A DNA stretch of 64,000 bases from Candidatus Latescibacterota bacterium (lineage in GTDB: Bacteria; Latescibacterota; UBA2968; UBA8231). Below the pieces are notes generated by a model. That model did not search any database. It had not been told where the DNA came from and was given only the letters and a program-made list of their open reading frames with translations. The translations under genes were made by a program, and so were the position numbers. Shown here piece by piece: positions 10,661 through 25,662 of the stretch (the stretch's first letter is position 1; the number at the start of each line of letters is the position of its first letter). The DNA lies in NCBI GenBank assembly GCA_965248265.1, contig CBDFJF010000001.1, positions 2,336,001 through 2,400,000 of the forward strand. Reading direction: 5' to 3'.

Positions 10661-13600
10661 TTGACTCACCGCGAAGACCCCAACTCCGCCGTCCTCGACG
10701 CCAATGATGGCCAGAGCGCTCTGGCGCTCTTCCATCCACTGGTAGCCTCCTGGTTCACCGACCAGGTCGGCATGCCGACAGCGGCTCAGCAACAGGCCTG
10801 GCCCCGCATCGCTGACGGCGAGCATGTCCTGATCACGGCCCCGACCGGTAGCGGCAAGACCCTCACGGCCTTCTTGTGGGCCATCGATCGCCTTGTCACC
10901 GGCGCGTGGCCCTGTGGACACACCAGCGTCCTCTACGTCTCTCCGCTGCGCGCCCTCAACAACGATATCCGGCGCAACCTGCTGACTCCGCTGGATCAAC
11001 TGCGCTCGGTTTTCGAGCGCTCGAACCAGGATTTTCCAACTATCCGCGTGCTCACCCGCAGTGGTGACACGCCGCAGTCGGACCGCCGCCGAATGCTCAG
11101 ACACCCGCCGGAAATCCTGATCACGACACCGGAAAGTCTCAACCTGCTGCTGAGCTCGCACGGGGGACGGTCCATCCTGACCGGGCTGTCGACGGTGATC
11201 CTGGATGAGATCCACGCCGTCGTCGGCAACAAGCGCGGCGTCCACCTGATCACCGGGGTCGATCGGTTGGTACCACTATGTGGCGAATTCCAGCGCATCG
11301 CCCTGTCGGCTACCGTGAGACCGTTGGAGGGTGTCGCAGCCTTCGTCGGCGGCTTGCGCATGTCCGGCCATGGAGCCGCACAGCCGACCTATCAGCCCCG
11401 GCCGGTGGCGATTCTCGAATCAGCCGCCGATAAGCACTATGACATTCAGGTGCGCTTTCCGGCGGCGGCAGCCGATCCCGATGACCGCGAGTCCGTCTGG
11501 GAACCGCTCGTCGACGAATTCAAGAGCGTCATCCGGCGCAACACCTCGACCCTCCTGTTCGCCAACAGCCGGCGCCTGTGTGAAAAGCTGACCCTGTTCA
11601 TCAACAGCGACCGGGAACAACCCATCGCCTACGCGCATCACGGATCGCTGTCGCGGGAAATCCGCGAGACGGTAGAACGCAAGCTCAAGGAGGGCGATCT
11701 AAGTGCGATAGTAGCCACCAGCTCACTGGAGCTGGGTATCGACGTCGGGGCGCTCGACGAGGTCGTCCTGGTGCAGTCGCCGACTTCTGTGTCGTCAGCC
11801 ATCCAGCGGGTCGGACGGGCCGGCCACCAGGTGGGTGAGACCAGCCGCGGCACCCTGTTTCCGACGCACTCACACGACTTTCTGGAAGCGGCCGTCCTGG
11901 CCAGCGCCATCCTGTCCCGCGACATCGAAAAGGTGCGTCCGGTCGATTCTCCCCTGGATGTCCTGGCTCAGGTGATCATATCCATGGTCGGCATCGAAAG
12001 CTGGGATATCGATGAGCTTTTCAGTGCTATTAAGTGCTCGCATCCGTATCGCGAGCTTGGACGGAAGCATTTCGATCTGGTACTCAACATGCTGGCGGGG
12101 CGCTATGCTCACAGCCGGGTGCGTGAACTCAAGCCACGGGTCTCCATCGACCGCGTCGACAACAACGTCGTCGCCCGCAAAGGGGCCTTGCAGGAGCTCT
12201 ACATGTCAGGCGGCACCATCCCGGACCGGGGCTATTTTCACCTGCGTCGTCAGGATTCCAACGCCCGCATCGGTGAGTTGGACGAGGAATTTGTCTGGGA
12301 GAGCTCGGAAGGCCAGTCCTTCACCCTGGGGACGCAGAACTGGACCATACAGCGAATCACCCACAACGATGTCTTCGTGACCCCGGCGCCACCCAAGCCG
12401 GTAGATCTGCCGTTCTGGAAGGCGGACGGCGGCAATCGTGATTTCCATTTTTCGCAACGCATCGCCGAATTCCTTGAGCAGGCCAACACACACCTGGGTG
12501 ATCCCGAACTGCTGTCTCACCTCAAACGGGATCACGCCATGGATCAGACCTCGGCGCAGCAACTCGTGGCCTTCCTCGAGCGCCAACGTCAGGTCAGCGG
12601 CTGTGACCTTCCCCACCGGCATCACCTGGTGTTGGAGCAGGTCAATTCCGGACCGGATGGCTACCCGGGAACGCAGCTCATCCTGCACACCTTTTGGGGG
12701 GGCCGCGTCAACCGACCCTTTGCCATGGCCATGGAGGCTGCCTGGGATATCCGCTTCGGACAGCGCCTGGAAGTCTATCCGTCCAATAACTGCATCGTGG
12801 TCTTGCTACCTGACGATTTCGAGTGTGATGAAATCCTTTCGCTGGTCACGGCTGCCGAGTTCGAATCACTGTTGCGCAAGACCTTGGAAAGCTCCGCGTT
12901 CTTCGGGGCCCGTTTCCGGGAGTGCGCCGGTCGTGCCTTGCTGGTGACCAAGAACCGGATGAATCAGCGCATGCCGCTGTGGGTGAGCAGGCTGCGCTCC
13001 CAGAAGTTGCTCGATACGGTAATGCGCTTCGATGACTTCCCCATCCTGCTGGAGAGCTGGCGCACCTGCCTGCAGGATGAGTTCGACCTGGCTGCGGCGA
13101 AGACCCTGTTGGCAGAACTGGAGTCGGGCGCCATCACCTGGACCGAGATTCGGACGGAGCGGCCGAGCCCCTTCGCCCAGGGCCTGGCCTGGGAGCAGGT
13201 GGACGACTTCATGTACAGATCGGATGAGCTCGCCGGTGGACGCACCTCCAGACTCAGCGATGACCTCATCCGTGAGATCGTGCAGTCACCGGACCTGAGA
13301 CCGTCTATTGCTGTTGACACCGTGCGCGCTTTTGAGCTGAAGCGACAGCGTTTGAGTCCCGGGTACGCGCCAACGACGGCTCGAGACCTGCTCGACTGGA
13401 TCGGTGAGCGCCTGATCCTGCCGCAGTCAGAGTTCGATAGTCTGAAAACGGCGATGCAGCGTGATGGTGAAACGGACGCCGGTGTCCTCATCGCTGAATG
13501 CGGCCGGAAACTTGTCTGTTTGAGCGCACCTGAATTACGCGAACCGCTCGTCGCGACACTCGACAATGTTCCCCGCCTGGTTGACGGCCTCTACCCGGAC

Positions 13601-15217
13601 TCCTCCGCCGTGGCCGTCACTGTGGTCAGCGACGGGAGTGTGGTTGGACCAGGTGAATGGCGGTTGGAGCGTGAAGGTGGGGATGAAGAAGATCCTCCTC
13701 CCGCGGCCGACGAGCTGCTGGAATGGCTTATATCTGGCTGTTTGCCGTATTACGGACCCAGGACCAGCAGCGAGATTGCCGGCATGATCGGGGTCGGTGC
13801 TGCGCGCTTGCAGCACTGTCTCGACGACCTGGCAGAGGCCGATATCGTCATACTGGGATCAGGCCTGGTTGACGGCAGTGGGGATGGCGAATGCGTCTGT
13901 GACCGCGACAACCTCGAGGCCTTGCTGCGGCTGTCACGGGCGCTGGCTGTGCCTGTTTTCGAGCCGCTGGAGCTGGAATCGTTGCCACTGTTCTTGGCTG
14001 CCTGGCAGGGCCTTACCGACGACGACGATGCTACCAGTACTGCACGCCGGATCGAACAGCTGCTGTGTTACGACTCACCGGCCGCACTGTGGGAGTCGGA
14101 GATTTTTCCGGCCCGCCTGAGCAGTTTTTCGACTGCCTCCATGGACTCACTGATGCAGGAGAGCCCACTGCGTTGGGTCGGCCATGGCGAGGGGCACGTC
14201 TCGTTCTGCTTTGAACCGGATCTCGACTTACTCCTCGACGAATCTGCGGGCGACAGCCTAACAGCGCCTGGCGAAATCACCGCGTTGTTCAGCGACCCGG
14301 ACGCCCGCTACGATTTCCGCGTCCTGCAACGATTGTCGGGTCTCAGCGGTGAGGCCTTGTCGCAGGCGCTGTGGTCGGCAGTGTGGCAGGGGCAGCTGAC
14401 TAACGATACGCTGAGTGCCCTGCACAAAGGCGTGGCGACCGGTTTCGAGGTACCCCGAGTGGTCGAGGCGAAGGTTTCGCAGGTCGAGGAACGCGTCCAT
14501 GACACGCGAGGCCGGCGCGGGCGCGGCTCCTTTGCTCGCTGGAAGGGCTCGTTGCCGTTCGCGGGCAATTGGCACTTGCTTGAACGCTCTGAAGCTGCCG
14601 ACGATCCGCTGGAGATCGAAGAACGCCACAAGGACCGCGTGCGTCTGCTGCTGGACCGCTACGGTCTGCTCTTTCGCGAGCTGCTGCAGCGGGAGCTTCC
14701 ACCCTTTCGCTGGGCCAGCCTGTTCCGCTCGTTGCGCCTCATGGAGTTATCTGGCGAGATCGTCGCCGGCTGCTTCTTCACCGATATTCCAGGGCCGCAG
14801 TTCATGTCTCACCGGGCATTTCGCCTGCTGCAGAGATCCCTGCCAGATGAGGCCGTGTTCTGGTTCAATGCCTGCGATCCGATTTCACCGTGCGGCATGC
14901 CCCTGGAGGCGTTGCGGGGCGCCTTGCCCAGAAGGGTACCCAGCAATCATCTGGTTTTCCATGGCCACCGCCCGGTCCTCATCAGCGAGCGCAATGGCAA
15001 ATCGCTGACGATTGCGGTTGCACCCGGAGACCCGAGCCTGACGCGTTACTTTTGCATCCTCCACCACCTTCTCTCACGGCCGTTTCAGTCAGTACGGCAA
15101 TTGTCGATCGAGGCCATAAACGGGGAGGCAGCCGGCCGCAGCCCCTACGTCGATGTTATCAAGACCTGCTTTGAGGCTCGCCTCGACTACACCGATCTGG
15201 TCATCTATCGGCAGTAG
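10661..15217 (+). CDS. lhr: Lhr-family large DEAD/DEAH-box helicase with C-terminal winged-helix/glycosylase-like region
   Basis: APTGSGKT, SPLRALNND, DEIH, SAT, HHGSLS, LELGIDVG, QRVGRAGH, GGTIPDRG; 1518 aa. Confidence 0.93.
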   Translation: MTHREDPNSAVLDANDGQSALALFHPLVASWFTDQVGMPTAAQQQAWPRIADGEHVLITAPTGSGKTLTAFLWAIDRLVTGAWPCGHTSVLYVSPLRALNNDIRRNLLTPLDQLRSVFERSNQDFPTIRVLTRSGDTPQSDRRRMLRHPPEILITTPESLNLLLSSHGGRSILTGLSTVILDEIHAVVGNKRGVHLITGVDRLVPLCGEFQRIALSATVRPLEGVAAFVGGLRMSGHGAAQPTYQPRPVAILESAADKHYDIQVRFPAAAADPDDRESVWEPLVDEFKSVIRRNTSTLLFANSRRLCEKLTLFINSDREQPIAYAHHGSLSREIRETVERKLKEGDLSAIVATSSLELGIDVGALDEVVLVQSPTSVSSAIQRVGRAGHQVGETSRGTLFPTHSHDFLEAAVLASAILSRDIEKVRPVDSPLDVLAQVIISMVGIESWDIDELFSAIKCSHPYRELGRKHFDLVLNMLAGRYAHSRVRELKPRVSIDRVDNNVVARKGALQELYMSGGTIPDRGYFHLRRQDSNARIGELDEEFVWESSEGQSFTLGTQNWTIQRITHNDVFVTPAPPKPVDLPFWKADGGNRDFHFSQRIAEFLEQANTHLGDPELLSHLKRDHAMDQTSAQQLVAFLERQRQVSGCDLPHRHHLVLEQVNSGPDGYPGTQLILHTFWGGRVNRPFAMAMEAAWDIRFGQRLEVYPSNNCIVVLLPDDFECDEILSLVTAAEFESLLRKTLESSAFFGARFRECAGRALLVTKNRMNQRMPLWVSRLRSQKLLDTVMRFDDFPILLESWRTCLQDEFDLAAAKTLLAELESGAITWTEIRTERPSPFAQGLAWEQVDDFMYRSDELAGGRTSRLSDDLIREIVQSPDLRPSIAVDTVRAFELKRQRLSPGYAPTTARDLLDWIGERLILPQSEFDSLKTAMQRDGETDAGVLIAECGRKLVCLSAPELREPLVATLDNVPRLVDGLYPDSSAVAVTVVSDGSVVGPGEWRLEREGGDEEDPPPAADELLEWLISGCLPYYGPRTSSEIAGMIGVGAARLQHCLDDLAEADIVILGSGLVDGSGDGECVCDRDNLEALLRLSRALAVPVFEPLELESLPLFLAAWQGLTDDDDATSTARRIEQLLCYDSPAALWESEIFPARLSSFSTASMDSLMQESPLRWVGHGEGHVSFCFEPDLDLLLDESAGDSLTAPGEITALFSDPDARYDFRVLQRLSGLSGEALSQALWSAVWQGQLTNDTLSALHKGVATGFEVPRVVEAKVSQVEERVHDTRGRRGRGSFARWKGSLPFAGNWHLLERSEAADDPLEIEERHKDRVRLLLDRYGLLFRELLQRELPPFRWASLFRSLRLMELSGEIVAGCFFTDIPGPQFMSHRAFRLLQRSLPDEAVFWFNACDPISPCGMPLEALRGALPRRVPSNHLVFHGHRPVLISERNGKSLTIAVAPGDPSLTRYFCILHHLLSRPFQSVRQLSIEAINGEAAGRSPYVDVIKTCFEARLDYTDLVIYRQ

Positions 15218-18482: not shown

Positions 18483-19445
18483 ATGATCGAGCTGTCGCTC
18501 TACGAAATGATGGTGCGGATTCGGCGAACGGAGGAACAGCTGGCGCGTTCGCACGAGGCCGGCCTCATCCCCGGAGCATGTCACACCTATGTCGGCGAAG
18601 AAGCGATCGCCACCGGAGTGTGCGCTCACCTGCGTGATGACGATGCCGTCTTCAGCACCCACAGAGGGCATGGCCATGCCCTCGCCAAGGGAGTGCCCAT
18701 CCGGGAGGTTGTCGCCGAGCTGTTCGGCAGAGCCACCGGTTGCTCTCAGGGGCGTGGCGGCAGCATGCATCTGTTCAAACCAGAAATAGGCATGATGGGC
18801 ACCAGCGGTATCGTCGGACCCTGCATTCTCCAGGCGGCTGGAGCCGGATACACCTACAAGCTTCTGGAGACCAACCAGGTTGGCGTTGCTTTCTTCGGCG
18901 ATGGTGCGGTCAGCAACGGTGCCTTCCATGAAGGATTGACGATGGCCGCTGCCTGGCAGCTGCCCTGTGTGTTCGTGTGCGAGAACAACCTCTTCGCCAC
19001 GGAGATGCCTTTCCACAAGGCCACCGGCAACCCTGAGGTTGCCAACCGCGGCGTGGCCTACGGCATCCCGGCCCTCGCCGTCGACGGCAACGACGTAGTC
19101 GCCGTGCACGCGGCGGCCGGCGATGCGGTGGCACGCGCCCGTGGCGAAGGTGGTCCGACCTTGCTGGAATGCAAGACCTACCGCACCAGGGCGCACTCCG
19201 AAGGCATGCGGACCACCGGCTATCGCACGCAGGAGGAGATCGACGCCTGGAAGGCGAAGGACCCCATCGACAGACTGGCGAAATGGGTAGCTACCCAGGA
19301 CCAGACGGGGTTGACGAAGATGTCGAGCATCGACGAGCGGATCCGGATGGAAGTCGAGGAGGCTCTCGAGTTCGCCGAGAACAGCCCATGGCCCGATCCT
19401 CTAACACTGATGGACCACATCTTCAGTGAGGATTCGCATGCGTGA
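18483..19445 (+). CDS. TPP-dependent 2-oxoacid/acetoin dehydrogenase E1 alpha subunit
   Basis: HRGHGH, GRGGSMH, GDGA...ENN TPP motif, TYR. Confidence 0.92.
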   Translation: MIELSLYEMMVRIRRTEEQLARSHEAGLIPGACHTYVGEEAIATGVCAHLRDDDAVFSTHRGHGHALAKGVPIREVVAELFGRATGCSQGRGGSMHLFKPEIGMMGTSGIVGPCILQAAGAGYTYKLLETNQVGVAFFGDGAVSNGAFHEGLTMAAAWQLPCVFVCENNLFATEMPFHKATGNPEVANRGVAYGIPALAVDGNDVVAVHAAAGDAVARARGEGGPTLLECKTYRTRAHSEGMRTTGYRTQEEIDAWKAKDPIDRLAKWVATQDQTGLTKMSSIDERIRMEVEEALEFAENSPWPDPLTLMDHIFSEDSHA

Positions 19446-20415
19446 ACTGACCTACTCCGAAGCCACACTCGAAGCACTGTCGGAGGAGATGGCGGCTGAC
19501 CCGACGACTTTCGTCGTTGGCCAGGGCATCGGAGCTCGAGGCGGCAACTTCAACACCACGACCGGCCTTCACGCCCTCTACGGCGACATGCGCCTGCGCG
19601 ACGTCGGAATCTACGAACGCGGATTCACCGGCATGTGCGCGAGTGCGGCCATGACGGGATCGCGCCCGATCGTCGACTACATGATGTTGGATTTCGCCCT
19701 AGACGCCATGGGGGAGATACTCAACCAGATCGCCAAGATCCAGTACATGAGCAGCGGCCGCTTGAAAATGCCGATCGTCCTGCGCGCCTGTATCGGACTC
19801 GGAGGGTCAATGGCAACTCATCACTCGGGCAACTACTACTCATTTTTTGTAAACCATCCCGGTTTTCGGGTCGCCTTGCCGACGACGCCGGCAGATGCCA
19901 AGGGACTTCTGAAGAGTGCCATCCGCAGCGACGACCCCGTGCTCTTTCTGGAGCACAGATTACTGTTGAAGACGGTGGGCGCCGTCCCTGAGGGAGGGGA
20001 CGCCATCCCCTTCGGCGAAGCGGCGGTGCGCACCCAGGGCAATGATGCGACCGTCGTCGCATTGACGGCGATGGTCCAGCAATGTGTTGAGGTGAGCACG
20101 GCCTTGGCGACGGACGGAATCTCCGTCGAAGTCATCGATCCACGCACCGTGGCTCCTCTCGACATGGACACCATACTCGCCTCCGTGCGCAAAACAGGCC
20201 GTCTGCTCATCGTCGACGAGAGCTTCGGCCCGTGTGGAGTCGGAGCCGAAATCGCCACTCGCGTGGTGGAGGAGGCCTTCGACGACCTCAAGGCCCCGAT
20301 CAAGCGTCTGAACGGTGCTCACGTGCCCATGCCGTACAGCGCCCCGCTGGAAACGGCCGCGATACCGCAACAGGAGCAGATCGCCACCGCCGTTCGCGAC
20401 CTGCTCGCAGTGTAG
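19438..20415 (+). CDS. 2-oxoacid/acetoin dehydrogenase E1 beta subunit
   Basis: DAKGLLKSAIRSDDPVLFLEH, EVIDPRT..PLD, SVRKTGRL. Confidence 0.92.
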   Translation: MRELTYSEATLEALSEEMAADPTTFVVGQGIGARGGNFNTTTGLHALYGDMRLRDVGIYERGFTGMCASAAMTGSRPIVDYMMLDFALDAMGEILNQIAKIQYMSSGRLKMPIVLRACIGLGGSMATHHSGNYYSFFVNHPGFRVALPTTPADAKGLLKSAIRSDDPVLFLEHRLLLKTVGAVPEGGDAIPFGEAAVRTQGNDATVVALTAMVQQCVEVSTALATDGISVEVIDPRTVAPLDMDTILASVRKTGRLLIVDESFGPCGVGAEIATRVVEEAFDDLKAPIKRLNGAHVPMPYSAPLETAAIPQQEQIATAVRDLLAV

Positions 20416-20432
20416 CCTGCCGGATTTTATCC

Positions 20433-21197
20433 ATGCCTGATGCTGTAAGCTTGAGACTCGACGACAAGATTGTCGCCATCACCGGCGGTGCGACCGGCAT
20501 CGGCGCCGCCTGCGTAGAGCTGTTCGCCGAGCGCGGCGCCACGGTGTTTGTCCTTGACTGCAACAGTGAAGAGGGTGCTTCCACCGTCGGCCGCGTTACA
20601 TCGGCCGGGGGAAAGGCCTCGTTCCACCAACTTGACGTGCGGTCCGATTCAGCGGTCAGATCAGCCTTCGGAGAAATTGAGAATGAGCATGGAAGGTTGG
20701 ACGCTCTGGTCTGTTGCGCCGGGGTGATCAAGGGCGCGTATCGCGGTATCAACGAACTCGCCGAGCAGGACTGGGACGCCACCCTCGATACCAACCTCAA
20801 GGGTACCTACCTGACCGCCAAATATGGTTCGCCATTGCTGATCAAGGGAGTGAACCCGGTCCTTCTGCTGATATCCTCAGGTGCCGGCGTGCACGGGGGC
20901 AGCTCGTCCTATGCCTACGCCGCCAGCAAGGCTGGCATGCACGGCATGCATTTCAATCTGGAGCACGAACTCGAGCCTCACGGTGTCCGGGTTCACGTTA
21001 TCTGCCCTGCCAGCATTGCGACCCCGCTCAAACTGGCCAACATCGGCCTAGCTGCCCAGGAGAAAGGCGAAGACGCCCAAGCCGCCATGGATGAGGCCAG
21101 GCAAAGGCTTGGGGAGCCCGTGGGGGTGGCACGGGTGTTGTGTTTTCTGGTGTCGGAAGAAGGATCCTACGTGCGGGGTACCGTCAGCACCCGTTGA
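20433..21197 (+). CDS. SDR family oxidoreductase
   Basis: TGGATGIG, CCAG, YAASK; start ATG 20433. Confidence 0.88.
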   Translation: MPDAVSLRLDDKIVAITGGATGIGAACVELFAERGATVFVLDCNSEEGASTVGRVTSAGGKASFHQLDVRSDSAVRSAFGEIENEHGRLDALVCCAGVIKGAYRGINELAEQDWDATLDTNLKGTYLTAKYGSPLLIKGVNPVLLLISSGAGVHGGSSSYAYAASKAGMHGMHFNLEHELEPHGVRVHVICPASIATPLKLANIGLAAQEKGEDAQAAMDEARQRLGEPVGVARVLCFLVSEEGSYVRGTVSTR

Positions 21198-21204
21198 GCG
21201 GGAG

Positions 21205-21316
21205 GAGTCGGACGGTGGCCCACTGTCAGCGCAGGGGCTGGTCTGACTCGGTGCGGCGCCAGACCAGGGAGCTATTCCCACCCCTTGCTGACGAGTGGGC
21301 CTTTGTCCGAACTCTG
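21205..21316 (-). ncRNA. candidate sigma-54-dependent structured small RNA (~110 nt)
   Basis: Starts at the predicted +1 of a sigma-54 promoter; five nested helices; no credible ORF. Confidence 0.65.
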
Positions 21317-21326
21317 TTGCTGACTC

Positions 21327-21342
21327 AGCAAACGTCGCGCCA
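21327..21342 (-). promoter_or_regulatory. sigma-54 (-24/-12) promoter
   Basis: Minus strand TGGCGC-GACGT-TTGCT against consensus TGGCAC-N5-TTGCW. Confidence 0.8.
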
Positions 21343-21440
21343 CTTTCGATTCAATCAACAAAATTTATCTTAACTATCATATTTACAATACGATAAACTT
21401 ATTTCATTGATTCTGATGGCAGTGGTATTTGGAGTAGAAC

Positions 21441-21549
21441 TGCTGCGTTGTTGCGGCATGCCTGCTGGTGTTTTTCGGAGTAAACTCAATTTTTACAAAT
21501 AGATATGGAGAAATGCATCGAAGCAGCTTCATGCCGCACCAACGCAGCA
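21441..21549. promoter_or_regulatory. pair of upstream activator (enhancer) sites
   Basis: TGCTGCGTTGTTGCGGCATG (21441-21460) and inverted copy CATGCCGCACCAACGCAGCA (21530-21549), 19/20 identical, each self-palindromic TGCYGC-N6-GCRGCA. Confidence 0.7.
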
Positions 21550-21571
21550 CCCACGCCTGCAGGGTTGGGCC

Positions 21572-22963
21572 CTATCGGGTTCTGTATTCTTCTGATTGAA
21601 TATCGTGTTTTCGGAGTAGCCGCTGGAAGGAAGTCCGGTGTAGCCCGGCTTGGACCGCAGCCCGCGAAACATTGCCCTGTGTTGCCGTCAGCAGACCAGA
21701 CAAGTAGTCGCGCTCGAATCGGGCCTTGGCAGCTGCCAGAGTGGTGTCTCCCTCGTCACTGCCTGCTGCGTTGGCTACAGCCTGAGTTGCGATGGCAGCA
21801 GGTAGCGAGGCCAACGTGATGGGACCTGAGTCCGTCAGGGAAAAGGCCCCCTCGATCGCGTTGTGGAGTTCGCGCACGTTACCGGGCCAGTCGTACTGCG
21901 TAAGTGCTTTCATGGCTTCGGGAGCGATGCCATCCACCTTCCGCGTAGCGGCCTCGTTCAACTCCTTGACGAAGTGATCGGCCAGAAGTGGTACGTCGCC
22001 GTCGCGATCTCGTAGTGCAGGCAGGGAGATCGTGAGCACGTTGAGACGGTAGTAGAGATCCTGTCTGAACCGTCCCTCGGCCATCGCTTTGTCCAGATCC
22101 TCGTTCGTCGCCGATAGCAACCGCATGTCGATGTCGAGTGTTTCCGTTCCGCCGACCCGGCGCAACTGTCGCTCTTGAATCACCCGCAACAGTTTAACCT
22201 GCAGGTCGACGCTCAACGTGGCGATCTCGTCCAGGAACACCGTTCCGCCCTGGGCCGCCTCGAGCAAACCTGTCTTCCTCGTGAACGCTCCGGTGAACGC
22301 ACCCCGCTCGTGTCCGAACAACTCGCTTTCCAGCAGTTGATCCGGCATGGCACCGCAATCGATGGGCAGAAACGGAGCATCCGAACGCTTGCTGTTGACG
22401 TGGATGCTGCGGGCGATCAACTCCTTGCCGGTCCCGGTTTGGCCGAGTATGAGAATGCTGCTGTCGCTGTCTGCCAACCGTTGCACCAGGTCCATGACCT
22501 TTCCCATCGCCGCGCTGCGGGCGACGATACCGTCGAAACCCCTCCGAAACTTCAGGGCCCGTCGCAGCATCTCGTTCTCAGTGCTCAGACGCTTCTGGGC
22601 AAGCGCCCGATCGACGGTGATCAACAACTGATCCGGAGAAAACGGTTTTGGCAGGTAGTCGAAGGCTCCCTGCTTGACGGCCTCCACCGCCGTAGAGATT
22701 GTCGGAAATGCCGTCACCATGATCTTCACCAGGTTCTCGTCAATGCTGCGCAGTTCCTCGAGCACCTCGAGACCATCCTTGTCCGGCATCTTCAGATCGA
22801 GCAGCATTAGATCGAATGTCTGTTCACGAACAGCGGCGATGCCGCTATCGGGGGTATCGCGTAGACTGACGTCGTAGCCATGGTAACGGAGCGTCTCCTC
22901 GCAGGCCTCCAACATGGCGGGCTCGTCATCGACGATCAGGATCCTGGCTTTCGTTCGGGTCAA
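21572..22963 (-). CDS. NtrC-family sigma-54-dependent response regulator
   Basis: Receiver, [47 protein letters not shown], Fis-type HTH. Confidence 0.95.
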
Positions 22964-24246
22964 TCCGTCCTCATACCTTCGTTGGGACTTTCCTCAGTGG
23001 AGTCGCCCATGCCGGGCAAGCGCACGGTCATCGTCGTGCCGCGATGACGGACCGTTTCGACTTCGATTCGCCCTCCCAGCTTTTCCACTATGCCGTAGCT
23101 GACCGACAGTCCAAGGCCGGTCCCCTTTCCCACCTGTTTGGTGGTGAAAAAGGGGTCGAAAATGAGGTCCTTGAAATCGTCGGGAATGCCGTTACCGGTG
23201 TCGGTGACCTTGATGGTAACCATCTCGGTTACTCCGCCGTACTCAGCAGGTCCATCAGTCGTCGCCTCTGTACTGAGACTCAATGTTCCGCCCTCCGGCA
23301 TCGCGTCCACAGCGTTGTTGATCAGGTTGATGAGCACCTGCTCCAATTCGTTGGGATCCGCTTTCACCAGCAAAGGACGGGGGCACAGCTCGGTCTTGAA
23401 ATCGAGTCCGTTCGCGGACATCGCCCTGACCGACAGCGACTGCGCGACGCCGACAACCTCGTTGACGTCGATGGTCTGGGGAATCCCGGACGAGGGACGC
23501 GAGAAGCTCAAGAGATTCTCGACAATCTGATTGATGCGCGCCGTTTGTTCGACGGCCACCTGCAGTGTTGAGACCGCGCGGCTCGAAAGCGACTCCTCTT
23601 CGGCGATCGACAGCAGAAAGTTCAGCTTCATCAGAAGCACACCTGCCGGATTGTTGACCTCGTGAGCAACACCGGCTGCGAGCTTGCCCATGGCCGCCAT
23701 CTTCTCCGATTGGATCAGTTGTGCCTGGGCCAGGGCAAGCGCTCGAGTGCGTTCCTTGACCGTGTCTTCCAGATTCTCCGTGTAAGCACGCTTGGCTTCT
23801 TCCAACTCGGCTTCTGCCCGTCGCAGCACGGTGATGTCGATGATGACGGCCATGGTACCTTCGAAACTGCCGTCCGCTGCTGTGAGAGGAGACGCCGATA
23901 TCAGTGTCGTTAGCGGCGATCCGTTCTTGTGGTAGATGAACGTCTCGTAGTAGTTGCGCAACCCCTTCTGGCGGTGTTGCGTGTACTCCGCATAACGCTG
24001 GAACTCATCGGGGTCCGTGAGCTCGGACAGGCTCTTCCCCTGCAGCTCGTCCGCCTCATAACCCAGCATTTCACACAGGCCTGGATTGACGAACGTCAAA
24101 CGCTCGTCAGAGTCGGTCATGCTGATTCCCGCAAAGGCCGTTTCCACTAGAGCCCGGTAACGTTCCTGGCTCCGGCGCAACTGCTCTGCGATGCGCCGCC
24201 GTTCGCGAAGGGCGACCCCCAGTTTGGTGTTGTGTTCTTCAACCAT
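22960..24246 (-). CDS. cytoplasmic PAS sensor histidine kinase (NtrB-like)
   Basis: PAS domain, EKMAAMGKLAAGVAHEVNNP, NLINNAVDA, DTGNGI, PFFTTK..GKGTGLGL; no TM. Confidence 0.93.
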   Translation of the reverse strand: MVEEHNTKLGVALRERRRIAEQLRRSQERYRALVETAFAGISMTDSDERLTFVNPGLCEMLGYEADELQGKSLSELTDPDEFQRYAEYTQHRQKGLRNYYETFIYHKNGSPLTTLISASPLTAADGSFEGTMAVIIDITVLRRAEAELEEAKRAYTENLEDTVKERTRALALAQAQLIQSEKMAAMGKLAAGVAHEVNNPAGVLLMKLNFLLSIAEEESLSSRAVSTLQVAVEQTARINQIVENLLSFSRPSSGIPQTIDVNEVVGVAQSLSVRAMSANGLDFKTELCPRPLLVKADPNELEQVLINLINNAVDAMPEGGTLSLSTEATTDGPAEYGGVTEMVTIKVTDTGNGIPDDFKDLIFDPFFTTKQVGKGTGLGLSVSYGIVEKLGGRIEVETVRHRGTTMTVRLPGMGDSTEESPNEGMRTD

Positions 24247-24468: not shown

Positions 24469-25662
24469 TTGCTGAAAAATGGACAAAAAGCCCGAAAAAA
24501 GACCACTTTGAAGCAGCCTTCCAGAAAAATCCGCCCGTGGTACACAGGTAAAACGCCCCCCGAAGAAGATGTAATAGGGATCGTCGACCGCATCGACCCT
24601 GATGCCCCCATACTCTATGACCAGGGACAAGAAGAGAACACGGGCGAGTACGCCGACGTCGTCAAGGAGCTGTACGGCAAGATGGATCTGCTCAAGCGCA
24701 GCCCGGACGAATTCCGCACGTGGACGGACGAAGACGGTTATCTGATTTTTTATGAAACACTGCTGGACTTCGCCGAGTCCGAAGTCAAGGACCGGGTTCA
24801 AGTCCTGCAGACCCTGGGAGCCTTTAAGTTCAGAGCTGCTGCTGGACCGGACGAAAAGAAAAGCCTGATCTCGGCCATCTTCACCGATGCCGACGACAAC
24901 GAAGACCCGAACATGGTCAACAGCACCAGAGCGCGGCGGCTGTCGCAGATCTGGTCTCCAGCATCTGATTCGCTTCTCGACTACATCATCTCCCGGCCGG
25001 CCCAGGCCGGACGCGTTCTCTCGGACCGCATCAGTCCGTCGAATCGCGAGCCGTTCCGCCTGATCGGCCATCCGTTCGCTGAAGTCCGCAGCACCGACCT
25101 GATGCCGCTGAAGGAAGCCAAGATCATAGCCTACGAGCGCGACGGGGAGATCCACCTCAACACCGGCGTCCGCACCGTCCTGGAAAACTGGGATCAGGAC
25201 ACCGCCGCTATCGGCGGCGTCGAGCAGGTTAGCCTGTTGGATACCCTGCTGCTACACGAGCTCATCGAACTGGTGTTAGACGAAACCAATCCGGAATACA
25301 CGCCCCTGCACTCGCACATCGTGGCCTGCTCCTTTGAACGCTACCTCAAAGGAACCTTGTTGTCCGTGGCCGTGGAGGACTTTTTCTTGACCTGGCCGCC
25401 AATGTCAGATGCGGAGATTGAAGAGCGGAACGCCAAGCAGATGGCTCAGGAACTCGAAGAAGCCAGCGCGATGTTTGCCGAAGAAGAGATCCCGGATATG
25501 GAAGATGAGGACCTGGACGGACTGCCCGTTGACAGCGATATCCGGCGCCGCAAGAAGAAAAAGAAGAAGAAAAAAATCTCTGGAGGGAAAGTCCCTGGAG
25601 AGAAAGTCCCTGAGGGGAAAGTCGTGAAGAAGAAGGTCAAGAAAAAGAAGAGAAGAGAGTGA
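24469..25662 (+). CDS. hypothetical protein with acidic then poly-Lys C-terminal tail
   Basis: 397-aa ORF with genome-like codon usage; LLHELIEL motif; RRRKKKKKKKK tail. Confidence 0.75.
   Translation: MLKNGQKARKKTTLKQPSRKIRPWYTGKTPPEEDVIGIVDRIDPDAPILYDQGQEENTGEYADVVKELYGKMDLLKRSPDEFRTWTDEDGYLIFYETLLDFAESEVKDRVQVLQTLGAFKFRAAAGPDEKKSLISAIFTDADDNEDPNMVNSTRARRLSQIWSPASDSLLDYIISRPAQAGRVLSDRISPSNREPFRLIGHPFAEVRSTDLMPLKEAKIIAYERDGEIHLNTGVRTVLENWDQDTAAIGGVEQVSLLDTLLLHELIELVLDETNPEYTPLHSHIVACSFERYLKGTLLSVAVEDFFLTWPPMSDAEIEERNAKQMAQELEEASAMFAEEEIPDMEDEDLDGLPVDSDIRRRKKKKKKKKISGGKVPGEKVPEGKVVKKKVKKKKRRE

Follow-up and report, generated by a model that had tools for sequence, protein, structure and literature searches.

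We analysed a 64,000-nucleotide stretch of the genome of a Candidatus Latescibacterota bacterium (contig CBDFJF010000001.1, positions 2,336,001 to 2,400,000; hereafter the window), in which the genes of a PAS sensor kinase and an NtrC-type activator on the minus strand are followed by a structured element that a first, sequence-only reading had proposed to be a sigma-54-dependent small RNA (sRNA) and the local target of this two-component system. We conclude that this element belongs to a new RNA family of a known regulatory kind, which is well supported, and we lean towards seeing it as a real, autonomous non-coding RNA gene that forms the dedicated output of the adjacent system. What we could observe are the elements of the locus, a fold with covariation, the strand on which it works, its conservation and the uniqueness of its regulatory sites, and these carry the argument.

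The predicted RNA is about 115 nt long and lies at 21198..21316 on the minus strand, with a 5' end placed from the promoter and a 3' end that is likewise a prediction. Its conserved core (21213..21305, minus strand), delimited by covariance models and RNAalifold, is Y-shaped, with a long basal stem of about 26 pairs, a side hairpin and an apical hairpin. The minus-strand segment 21320-21195 has a minimum free energy (MFE) fold of -71.0 kcal/mol, against -44.2 +/- 3.7 for 200 shuffled versions, none of which was as good (z -7.25), and this fold contains the helices listed in the sequence-only reading, together with the small side hairpin. In the window the latter reads GGGA-AUAGC-UCCC (21267..21279); its stem letters, GGGAAU-N3-UCCC, are identical in 10 of 10 distinct members of the family, and only the 3-nt centre varies. 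The apical-loop motif CGCACCGA (21248..21255), within a 10-nt loop on the hairpin 21258-21266/21239-21247, is equally invariant (10/10). A pyrimidine-rich tail follows 3' of the outer helix (CUCCUCCC in the window, the U-rich CUCCUUUUCU in a related metagenome contig, L222). The end of the RNA meets the convergent SDR (short-chain dehydrogenase/reductase) gene head-on, as had been described: the SDR stop codon, ending at 21197 on the plus strand, lies 8 nt past the outer helix.

This element does not look like a gene for a peptide, nor like a repeat. No conserved open reading frame (ORF) was found in the RNA region when the window was compared with L222 and a second such contig, L219, and substitutions there are compensatory rather than synonymous. 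Two small ORFs, 21048-21281 on the minus strand and 21140-21373 on the plus strand, were rejected as genes, being broken by a 16-nt indel in L219 and by stem-wise compensatory changes. The RNA is single-copy: a 151-nt stretch has one full-length match, itself, in the 7.3-Mb genome, the five others being of 17-20 nt with E of at least 0.5, and the covariance models give one match per genome. This single copy rules out a repeated hairpin of the REP/MITE type, the alternative that had been raised along with the first proposal. Rfam 15 gave no match at gathering thresholds over the whole 64-kb window and none at E <= 0.1 in eight homologous loci, in agreement with the suggestion of a new family. 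At E <= 10 the window returned chance-level rows only (P11, MIR171_2, Prion_pknot), including the Pseudomonas sRNA P11 (RF00625), which scored 16.1 bits (E 0.36; 21217-21354, minus strand) where 70 bits are required.

Homologues were found beyond the genus of the window. BLAST against 60 relatives gave one significant partial match (G033), the rest being noise; at that locus the activator stop codon is followed by TGCCGC-N6-GCGGCA, by TGGCAC-N5-TTGC and by an RNA with the same inner hairpins and a different outer stem. A covariance model made of three sequences of genus g18 only (R1), which excludes the window by construction, recovered the window core at 50.1 bits (E 5.6e-7) and matched 6 of the 76 genomes of the order, reaching two further genera through G011 and G019. 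A second model (R2), built on the six sequences matched by R1, scores the window at 74 bits. A motif scan of metagenome contigs then provided 25 loci, 12 of which match R2 at E <= 1e-12; the scan of genome contigs was mostly noise, with two true members among 80 of at least 119 matching stretches. One further weak candidate, L091 (25.9 bits), was discarded as a chance match: it falls within long ORFs and has no promoter. A 19-mer pattern was also abandoned: it matched 13 of 76 genomes, five of them real by inspection (G000, G033, G094, G095 and, partially, G027), and the same pattern reversed matched at a similar rate.

The alignment that we retained comprises 11 loci, which amount to 10 distinct sequences from four genera and metagenome contigs; seven loci were dropped, their core strings being identical to an included row. 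In this alignment 92.3% of the cells pair, against 32-45% in slid controls, and 20 of 39 pairs show a compensatory change, none of 500 shuffles reaching any of these measures, in an alignment that was fitted to the model and hence favours the model's fold. RNAalifold, applied to the same model-fitted alignment, returned almost the same structure; of its 37 pairs, 19 are compensatory. The strand can be read from the same data: several core pairs are G-U in most members, and all ten distinct members fold better on the activator strand, by 3.6-17.6 kcal/mol. Searches with strict filters, which scored 26-30 candidates per genome and may miss weak members, recovered the core from 6 of 132 genomes at the level of the class and from 6 of 151 in a sample of the phylum. 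All carriers belong to one family, with 1/1 genomes in g1, 1/2 in g6, 1/1 in g12 and 3/10 in g18. The submitter labels of related records include Candidatus Latescibacterota and Gemmatimonadetes.

The behavior of the locus within the window's own lineage is also informative. L222 and L219 share the compact arrangement of the window, and relative to it their identity is 295/326 (90%) and 235/326 (72%), respectively, in the C-terminal region of the activator, 69/98 and 47/94 in an AT-rich spacer upstream of the promoter, 15/16 in both for the -24/-12 box, 93/93 and 87/91 in the RNA core, and 102/113 (90%) and 83/105 (79%) in the end of the SDR gene. The RNA core is the best-conserved segment of the locus, at 96-100% versus 72-90% for the flanking genes, and the outer helix 21305-21314/21205-21213 is retained in both contigs via C-to-U changes that give G-U pairs on the minus strand. 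A relative of about 96% identity covers the whole locus in public contigs. Among the 40 of its 143 differences that are listed, at least two are in the RNA: 21245 G>A, which turns a G-C pair into a G-U pair on the minus strand, and 21266 A>T, which sits at a helix end. Run X1 possibly comes from the source of the window itself and does not count as independent evidence. Since the core stands at 93/93 and 87/91 beside more diverged flanks and its changes keep the pairing, the orphan RNA of the window is, on the pattern of substitutions, under strong purifying selection and not a fossil. That the promoter-like box and the hairpin arose by chance or are fossils, without any functional product, is hardly credible to us: such an explanation would have to account for the covariation, for the cross-genus detection by the independent model R1, for the 96-100% identity of the core against diverged flanks, and for the conservation of promoter and sites in all orthologous loci carrying an RNA.

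The elements upstream of the RNA tell a similar story. The sigma-54 promoter, TGGCGC-N5-TTGCT at 21342-21327 on the minus strand, is present as described, with a predicted +1 near 21316, and its box is conserved in orthologous loci. It has the GG/GC spacing of this promoter class, and both sigma-54 and a GAFTGA activator are encoded. A box of the TGG-N9-TGC type occurs in 8 of 8 orthologous loci with an RNA, starting 241-262 nt into a scanned segment whose first nucleotide is 30 nt short of where the activator match ends, and one is found upstream of the RNA core in 12 of 12 metagenome members. For comparison, the strict form TGGC[AG]C-N5-TTGC[ATG] has 55 occurrences in the 7.3-Mb genome, both strands counted. 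Farther upstream lie a distal candidate activator site, TGCTGC-N6-GCGGCA at 21549-21532 (TGCTGCGTTGGTGCGGCA), and a proximal one, TGCCGC-N6-GCAGCA at 21458-21441 (TGCCGCAACAACGCAGCA), an inverted copy of the distal; the near-identity of the two that had been claimed is exact to within one position when they are compared in opposite orientation. The AT-rich spacer between sites and promoter (21343..21440) is AT-rich in all relatives with an identity of only 48-70%, and may be a bend or an IHF/HU site, of which the AATCAA cores proposed in the sequence-only reading would be putative elements. The distal half-sites are intact in L222 and show one departure in L219; apart from this one departure in one half-site, the changes in both contigs fall in the variable spacer of the sites or at their Y/R positions.

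At the level of the genome, these sites single out the RNA. TGCYGC-N6-GCRGCA has 14 copies in the 7.3 Mb, versus about 4.6 expected by base composition; among 263 single sites genome-wide, paired ones (at most one mismatch each, 20-150 bp apart) exist only at the RNA locus, which is also the only place in the genome where an exact site lies within 400 bp of a sigma-54-like box. By its site motif, then, the RNA promoter would be the sole recognisable target of the activator in its own genome, as the sequence-only reading had suspected when it called the RNA the local target. An exact TGCTGC-N6-GCAGCA also occurs at 13798-13815 of the window (C1:2349798 of the genome), inside a 1518-aa ORF; we discarded it as a probable chance match, since neither a partner site nor, within 400 bp, a sigma-54 box accompanies it.

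Promoter, sites and hairpin are conserved, with compensatory base changes, beside orthologous regulators in other genera. Equivalent sites lie 3' of the activator stop codon in G033, G095, G011, G024, G013 and G076. We surveyed the RNA at each orthologue, with filters off, in the nine activator-carrying genomes, and found the core RNA 3' of the activator in G033 and G095 (g18), G011 (g12) and G019 (g6). In g14 (G024, G013 and G076) the same sites and sigma-54 box precede a shorter and different RNA, which has in common with the core only the motif GGAUCGUAA and one resembling ACCCUUCCG. These g14 RNAs may be diverged homologues or replacements of the core RNA. G024 and G013 (L063 and L064) share an RNA of about 100 nt, about 93% identical, with GGAUCGUAAAUC and ACCCUU motifs, and G076 (L065) has a third, longer RNA sequence under the same sites and box. 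In g9 (G008 and G021) neither the core RNA nor sites or RNA of the g14 type were found 3' of the activator; the counts of activator sites in these genomes are at control level (5 and 10 versus 8 and 7), and a sigma-54 box lies within 450 bp of 0 of 15 sites.

The two regulators were identified as had been proposed. The kinase (22960..24246, minus strand, 428 aa) has Pfam PAS/PAS_9, HisKA and HATPase_c domains and an H-box VAHEVNNP; it is predicted to be cytoplasmic, with no membrane or hydrophobic segment visible by eye in its translation. Its ORF overlaps by 4 nt that of the activator (21572..22963, minus strand, 463 aa; Response_reg, Sigma54_activat, AAA_lid_14, HTH_8), an NtrC-family response regulator with the receiver motif LLDLKMP and an intact GAFTGA in its translation. 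Since both proteins fall below every NCBIfam equivalog cut-off, this is an NtrC-family system without a name: the top score of the kinase is with AtoS (232 bits versus 646), and those of the activator are with AtoC/GlrR-like models (about 430 bits versus 714-763), its score with NtrC being 390 (versus 559). Orthologues of the activator exist in nine genomes of the family with 58-71% identity, the next-best matches being at 47% or less, and in 7 of 8 loci examined the kinase gene accompanies that of the activator in synteny. The genome also encodes RpoN (Sigma54_DBD, 211 bits) and two proteins of the HU/IHF family. The activator orthologue in G011 (L210/L062; 71% identity) is without the first ~82 receiver residues, and may be a constitutively active receiver-less form or a decaying gene.

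Taken together, these elements suggest the following chain of events, in which we infer transcription, binding by the activator, the 3' end of the RNA and a trans-acting mode with its partners. The soluble PAS kinase would phosphorylate the NtrC-type activator, which would bind the inverted pair of TGCYGC-N6-GCRGCA sites, located some 110 and 200 bp upstream, and open the promoter at 21342-21327 across the AT-rich spacer. An RNA of about 115 nt would then be made from around 21316 on the minus strand and fold into a three-way junction in the shape of a Y, composed of the long GC-rich stem, the GGGAAU-N3-UCCC hairpin and the hairpin presenting CGCACCGA. The most likely mode of action is that of a trans-acting regulator, whose invariant loop, side hairpin and perhaps pyrimidine-rich tail would contact mRNAs or a protein. 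Since no gene lies downstream of it in its own genome, the RNA of the window would have to act alone.

The family as a whole is more diverse than the window alone would suggest. The description of a free-standing RNA of about 110 nt stands for the window and fails in sister genera (g18, g6, g12), where the RNA extends further by 150-230 nt and the hairpin becomes the 5' module of an RNA of 280-330 nt in total, with a 3' domain and a strong terminator, usually placed before an amidase gene. The 3' domain includes a hairpin with the loop GGAC-ACCC-UUCG, and the terminator loop GCCCUCGCC is conserved over compensated stems. In the terminators of L051, L053, L056, L220 and L236, an apical sequence resembling CGGCAYGCCCUCGCCG is kept, the stem being CCCCCC/GGGGGG in some and CCCUUC/GAAGGG in others. 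Since the apical sequence is kept while the stem changes are compensated, the terminator loop may be a functional C-rich site. Long forms may also use C-rich loops, which could pair with ribosome-binding sites rich in purines. Seven distinct loci (G033, G094, G095, G019, G027, L231/L237 and L236) show activator, RNA, terminator, amidase and convergent SDR in this order, with an amidase (Pfam FmdA_AmdA) on the same strand as the RNA. G011 is without the amidase and keeps the 3' domain and terminator; L220 keeps an RNA with a terminator and has another convergent gene in the place of the amidase; and the window, L222 and L219 are without amidase, 3' domain and terminator, the core ending 8-40 nt before the SDR stop codon. 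The amidase orthologue of the window's genome (66% identity to that of G033) is found 1.1 Mb from the RNA and has no such leader; in the region C1:1242549-1244600 it directly follows an unrelated gene on the same strand, which was read by eye as a pyridoxal phosphate-dependent one of the ACC-deaminase/D-cysteine-desulfhydrase type. Since the hairpin of sister genera is the 5' module of a longer RNA, we take the ~115-nt form to have been shortened from it, most economically by a deletion in the lineage of the window. On this comparison, that lineage would have lost the parts on the side of the amidase and retained the core, the promoter and the regulators.

Several findings weigh against an autonomous regulator acting in trans. 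Hfq was not found in the genome, whose completeness is 92%. Six sequencing runs from two studies are listed with the window's DNA, none of them on record as RNA. No canonical or intrinsic terminator was found on the minus strand in the window. In G011 the N-terminus of the activator's receiver is missing, and a search beside the gene revealed no kinase. A search for complements of the loop in the window's genome, based on crude ORF starts, yielded 532 combinations of site and start, of which filters left 19; none of these was compelling, and the search is too crude to weigh either way. Finally, the seven long-form loci place the RNA directly 5' of a same-strand amidase gene; in G095 the amidase ATG is only about 15 nt past the terminator, which leaves no space for a promoter of its own; and in G027 and L231/L237 the activator has decayed, yet the RNA, or its 3' part, stays with the amidase. 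This persistence fits a cis-acting leader, at least ancestrally. The decay takes different forms: in G027 (L042/L009) a deletion joins the GNVRELQNA region of the activator to the apical loop of the RNA, and in L231 and L237 only fragments of the activator are left, with a box TGGTAC-N5-TTGC and an intact RNA core and amidase.

These last observations are the strength of an alternative in which the RNA is a sigma-54-driven 5' leader (an attenuator, a processed leader or a riboswitch-like one) of a gene of the acetamidase/formamidase family, the copy in the window being a remnant, kept secondarily or recently orphaned. As a general account we find it unlikely. No gene follows the RNA in the window, L222, L219 or G011, and a convergent gene does so in L220; in the window the next feature is a convergent stop codon, so that the arrangement of a riboswitch or attenuator leader is found, formally, only in the seven long-form loci. 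The orphan core is the best-conserved part of its locus, and its promoter, sites, kinase and activator are intact, which is not what decay looks like. The ~26-pair basal stem is too stable for a switching helix, and when the seven loci were examined for pairing of the loop or side hairpin with the 3' domain, the terminator or the ribosome-binding site of the amidase, the positions were inconsistent and none was conserved. A role as amidase leader is nonetheless plausible for the long forms, and was possibly the ancestral state. A variant of this idea, in which the Y-shaped core is a sequence-specific sensor or decoy for a protein or small ligand, and not a simple antisense seed, that turned from an amidase leader into a free-standing riboregulator after the deletion, is one that we entertain as a minority possibility, rather unlikely on balance. 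If true, it would represent a natural transition from leader to sRNA in which the RNA is the only output of a two-component system.

The absence of a terminator also leaves room for an explanation centred on the convergent genes, in which the hairpin would be a bidirectional terminator of the E1/SDR row, or the start of a sigma-54-driven antisense transcript that enters the SDR gene and lowers its expression. The core hairpin does form on the plus strand as well (-53.7 versus -57.3 kcal/mol), where TTTGT comes next; without a minus-strand terminator, transcription may continue through the end of the SDR gene; and the terminator that separates RNA and SDR in G011 is a shared hairpin that looks bidirectional. 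We regard this as very improbable. The core is also conserved where the end of the SDR gene is about 1 kb away, behind the amidase, in all ten members both the G-U pairs and the folding energies speak for the minus strand, and a role in termination would leave the invariant loops, the promoter and the activator sites unexplained. Antisense read-through, for its part, is not a conserved output, since in G011 and the long forms a strong terminator precedes the next gene. The hairpin of the window may still add a role as SDR terminator to its main one.

A further alternative concerns the mode of action: instead of pairing with other RNAs, the RNA would titrate a protein in the manner of CsrB/RsmZ, CrcZ or GlmY, with GGGAAU-N3-UCCC and CGCACCGA as recognition sites. 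Protein binding is possible because the side hairpin is invariant without covariation; the loop motif is invariant in the ten members, and the sequence of the core is conserved beyond what its structure needs. CsrA is encoded in the genome in which Hfq was not found, and the 5' base of the stem repeatedly carries motifs containing GGA (GGAUCGUAA, AGGAUGAAAAC and CGGACAAAG). Known CsrA sponges, however, carry many GGA motifs in loops, and the RNA of the window contains this triplet just twice, once within the GGGA/UCCC stem, which sets it apart from sponges of the CsrB/RsmZ type. No candidate partner is conserved beside the RNA alone, the conserved divergent neighbour of the kinase being far more widespread than the RNA. 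We therefore consider titration of a protein as the exclusive mode rather improbable, and keep the trans-acting regulator as our preferred reading.

A non-coding unit directly 3' of the activator gene, with activator sites upstream, is the layout of NrsZ, CrcZ and Pxr. It is also akin to that of GlmY (GlrK/GlrR) and Qrr1 (LuxO), which are sigma-54-dependent sRNAs encoded beside activator genes, GlmY acting by protein mimicry and Qrr by Hfq-dependent pairing; neither family matched the window RNA in our Rfam scans. Among the analogues named in the sequence-only reading, cbrAB-crcZ holds (PMC8871633), and NtrBC-nrsZ and PxrKR-pxr, which it did not name, are closer. In Pseudomonas aeruginosa, nrsZ has an RpoN promoter in the tail-to-tail spacer between ntrC and PA5126 and is induced by NtrB/C (PMC4253122). 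As in the window, where the order is activator, RNA and convergent SDR, the sRNA gene there sits between the activator gene and a tail-to-tail neighbour. NrsZ responds to nitrogen and is cut into three similar stem-loop modules, whereas the window RNA is one Y-shaped junction; Rfam gives no match in sequence or structure between them, and with NtrC the window's activator reaches 390 bits where 559 are required.

The crcZ gene of Pseudomonadaceae is a separate transcription unit downstream of cbrAB, with a sigma-N promoter directly activated by CbrB and a conserved cbrA-cbrB-crcZ order (PMC8871633), and is like the predicted gene of the window in being a sigma-54 sRNA gene 3' of a kinase/activator pair. 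It is unlike it in its CbrB subsites, which are given as non-palindromic (PMC8871633) where the sites of the window are inverted repeats, and in belonging to a different phylum. CrcZ sequesters Hfq/Crc via A-rich motifs, unlike the GC-rich RNA of a genome in which Hfq was not found, and the Rfam scans show no homology between the two as far as Rfam includes CrcZ. In Myxococcus xanthus, Pxr depends on a histidine kinase and a sigma-54 response regulator, PxrK and PxrR, whose genes lie upstream of the pxr promoter (PMC10217877), and this dependence is its likeness to the window. Pxr has several stem-loops, the conserved ones being functionally important (PMC5684412). With three consecutive stem-loops and processing to a short form, it differs from the single junction of the window. 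No homology between the two RNAs was detected in the Rfam 15 scans, as far as Rfam includes Pxr.

In the literature that we searched (sigma-54-dependent sRNAs and Latescibacterota sRNAs), neither an sRNA of this lineage nor this RNA was found. Our results provide an uncultured lineage with a probable regulatory RNA that is supported by covariation and comes with its own signalling system. They also extend a recurring design, in which the main or only promoter of a sigma-54 activator drives a small RNA encoded right behind the gene of the activator. The family pairs a leader-like form before an amidase with an orphan form under strong purifying selection, and is therefore a tractable case for studying how leaders and free-standing sRNAs interconvert. 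Promoter, sites, activator and RNA are all short enough to be reconstituted in a laboratory host.

The genes around the system complete the picture. The convergent SDR gene (20232..21197, plus strand; adh_short at ORF residues 79-267) is the last of a row at 18483-21197 on the plus strand formed by E1-alpha (E1_dh), E1-beta (Transket_pyr and Transketolase_C) and SDR, which converges on the RNA. Its true start is probably later, near 20450, because the Pfam domain begins at residue 79; the ORF as listed overlaps that of E1-beta by 184 nt. The same SDR gene lies convergent 3' of the RNA in G011, L222 and L219, and 3' of the amidase in long-form loci. A wider block that includes the 1518-aa ORF (10661-15217) is syntenic with G019. 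On the other side of the system, 24469-25662 on the plus strand encodes, divergently from the kinase, a 397-aa protein with no Pfam or NCBIfam match and for which no Protein Atlas score reached 0.9. The sequence of this protein shows a conserved HELxEL motif and, after an acidic stretch, a poly-lysine tail; its gene adjoins the system in five RNA-core loci examined (the window, G019, G095, G011 and G033). It has at least 131 clusters of relatives, many of them labelled Latescibacterota, Gemmatimonadetes or Handelsmanbacteria, and is thus far more widely distributed than the RNA.

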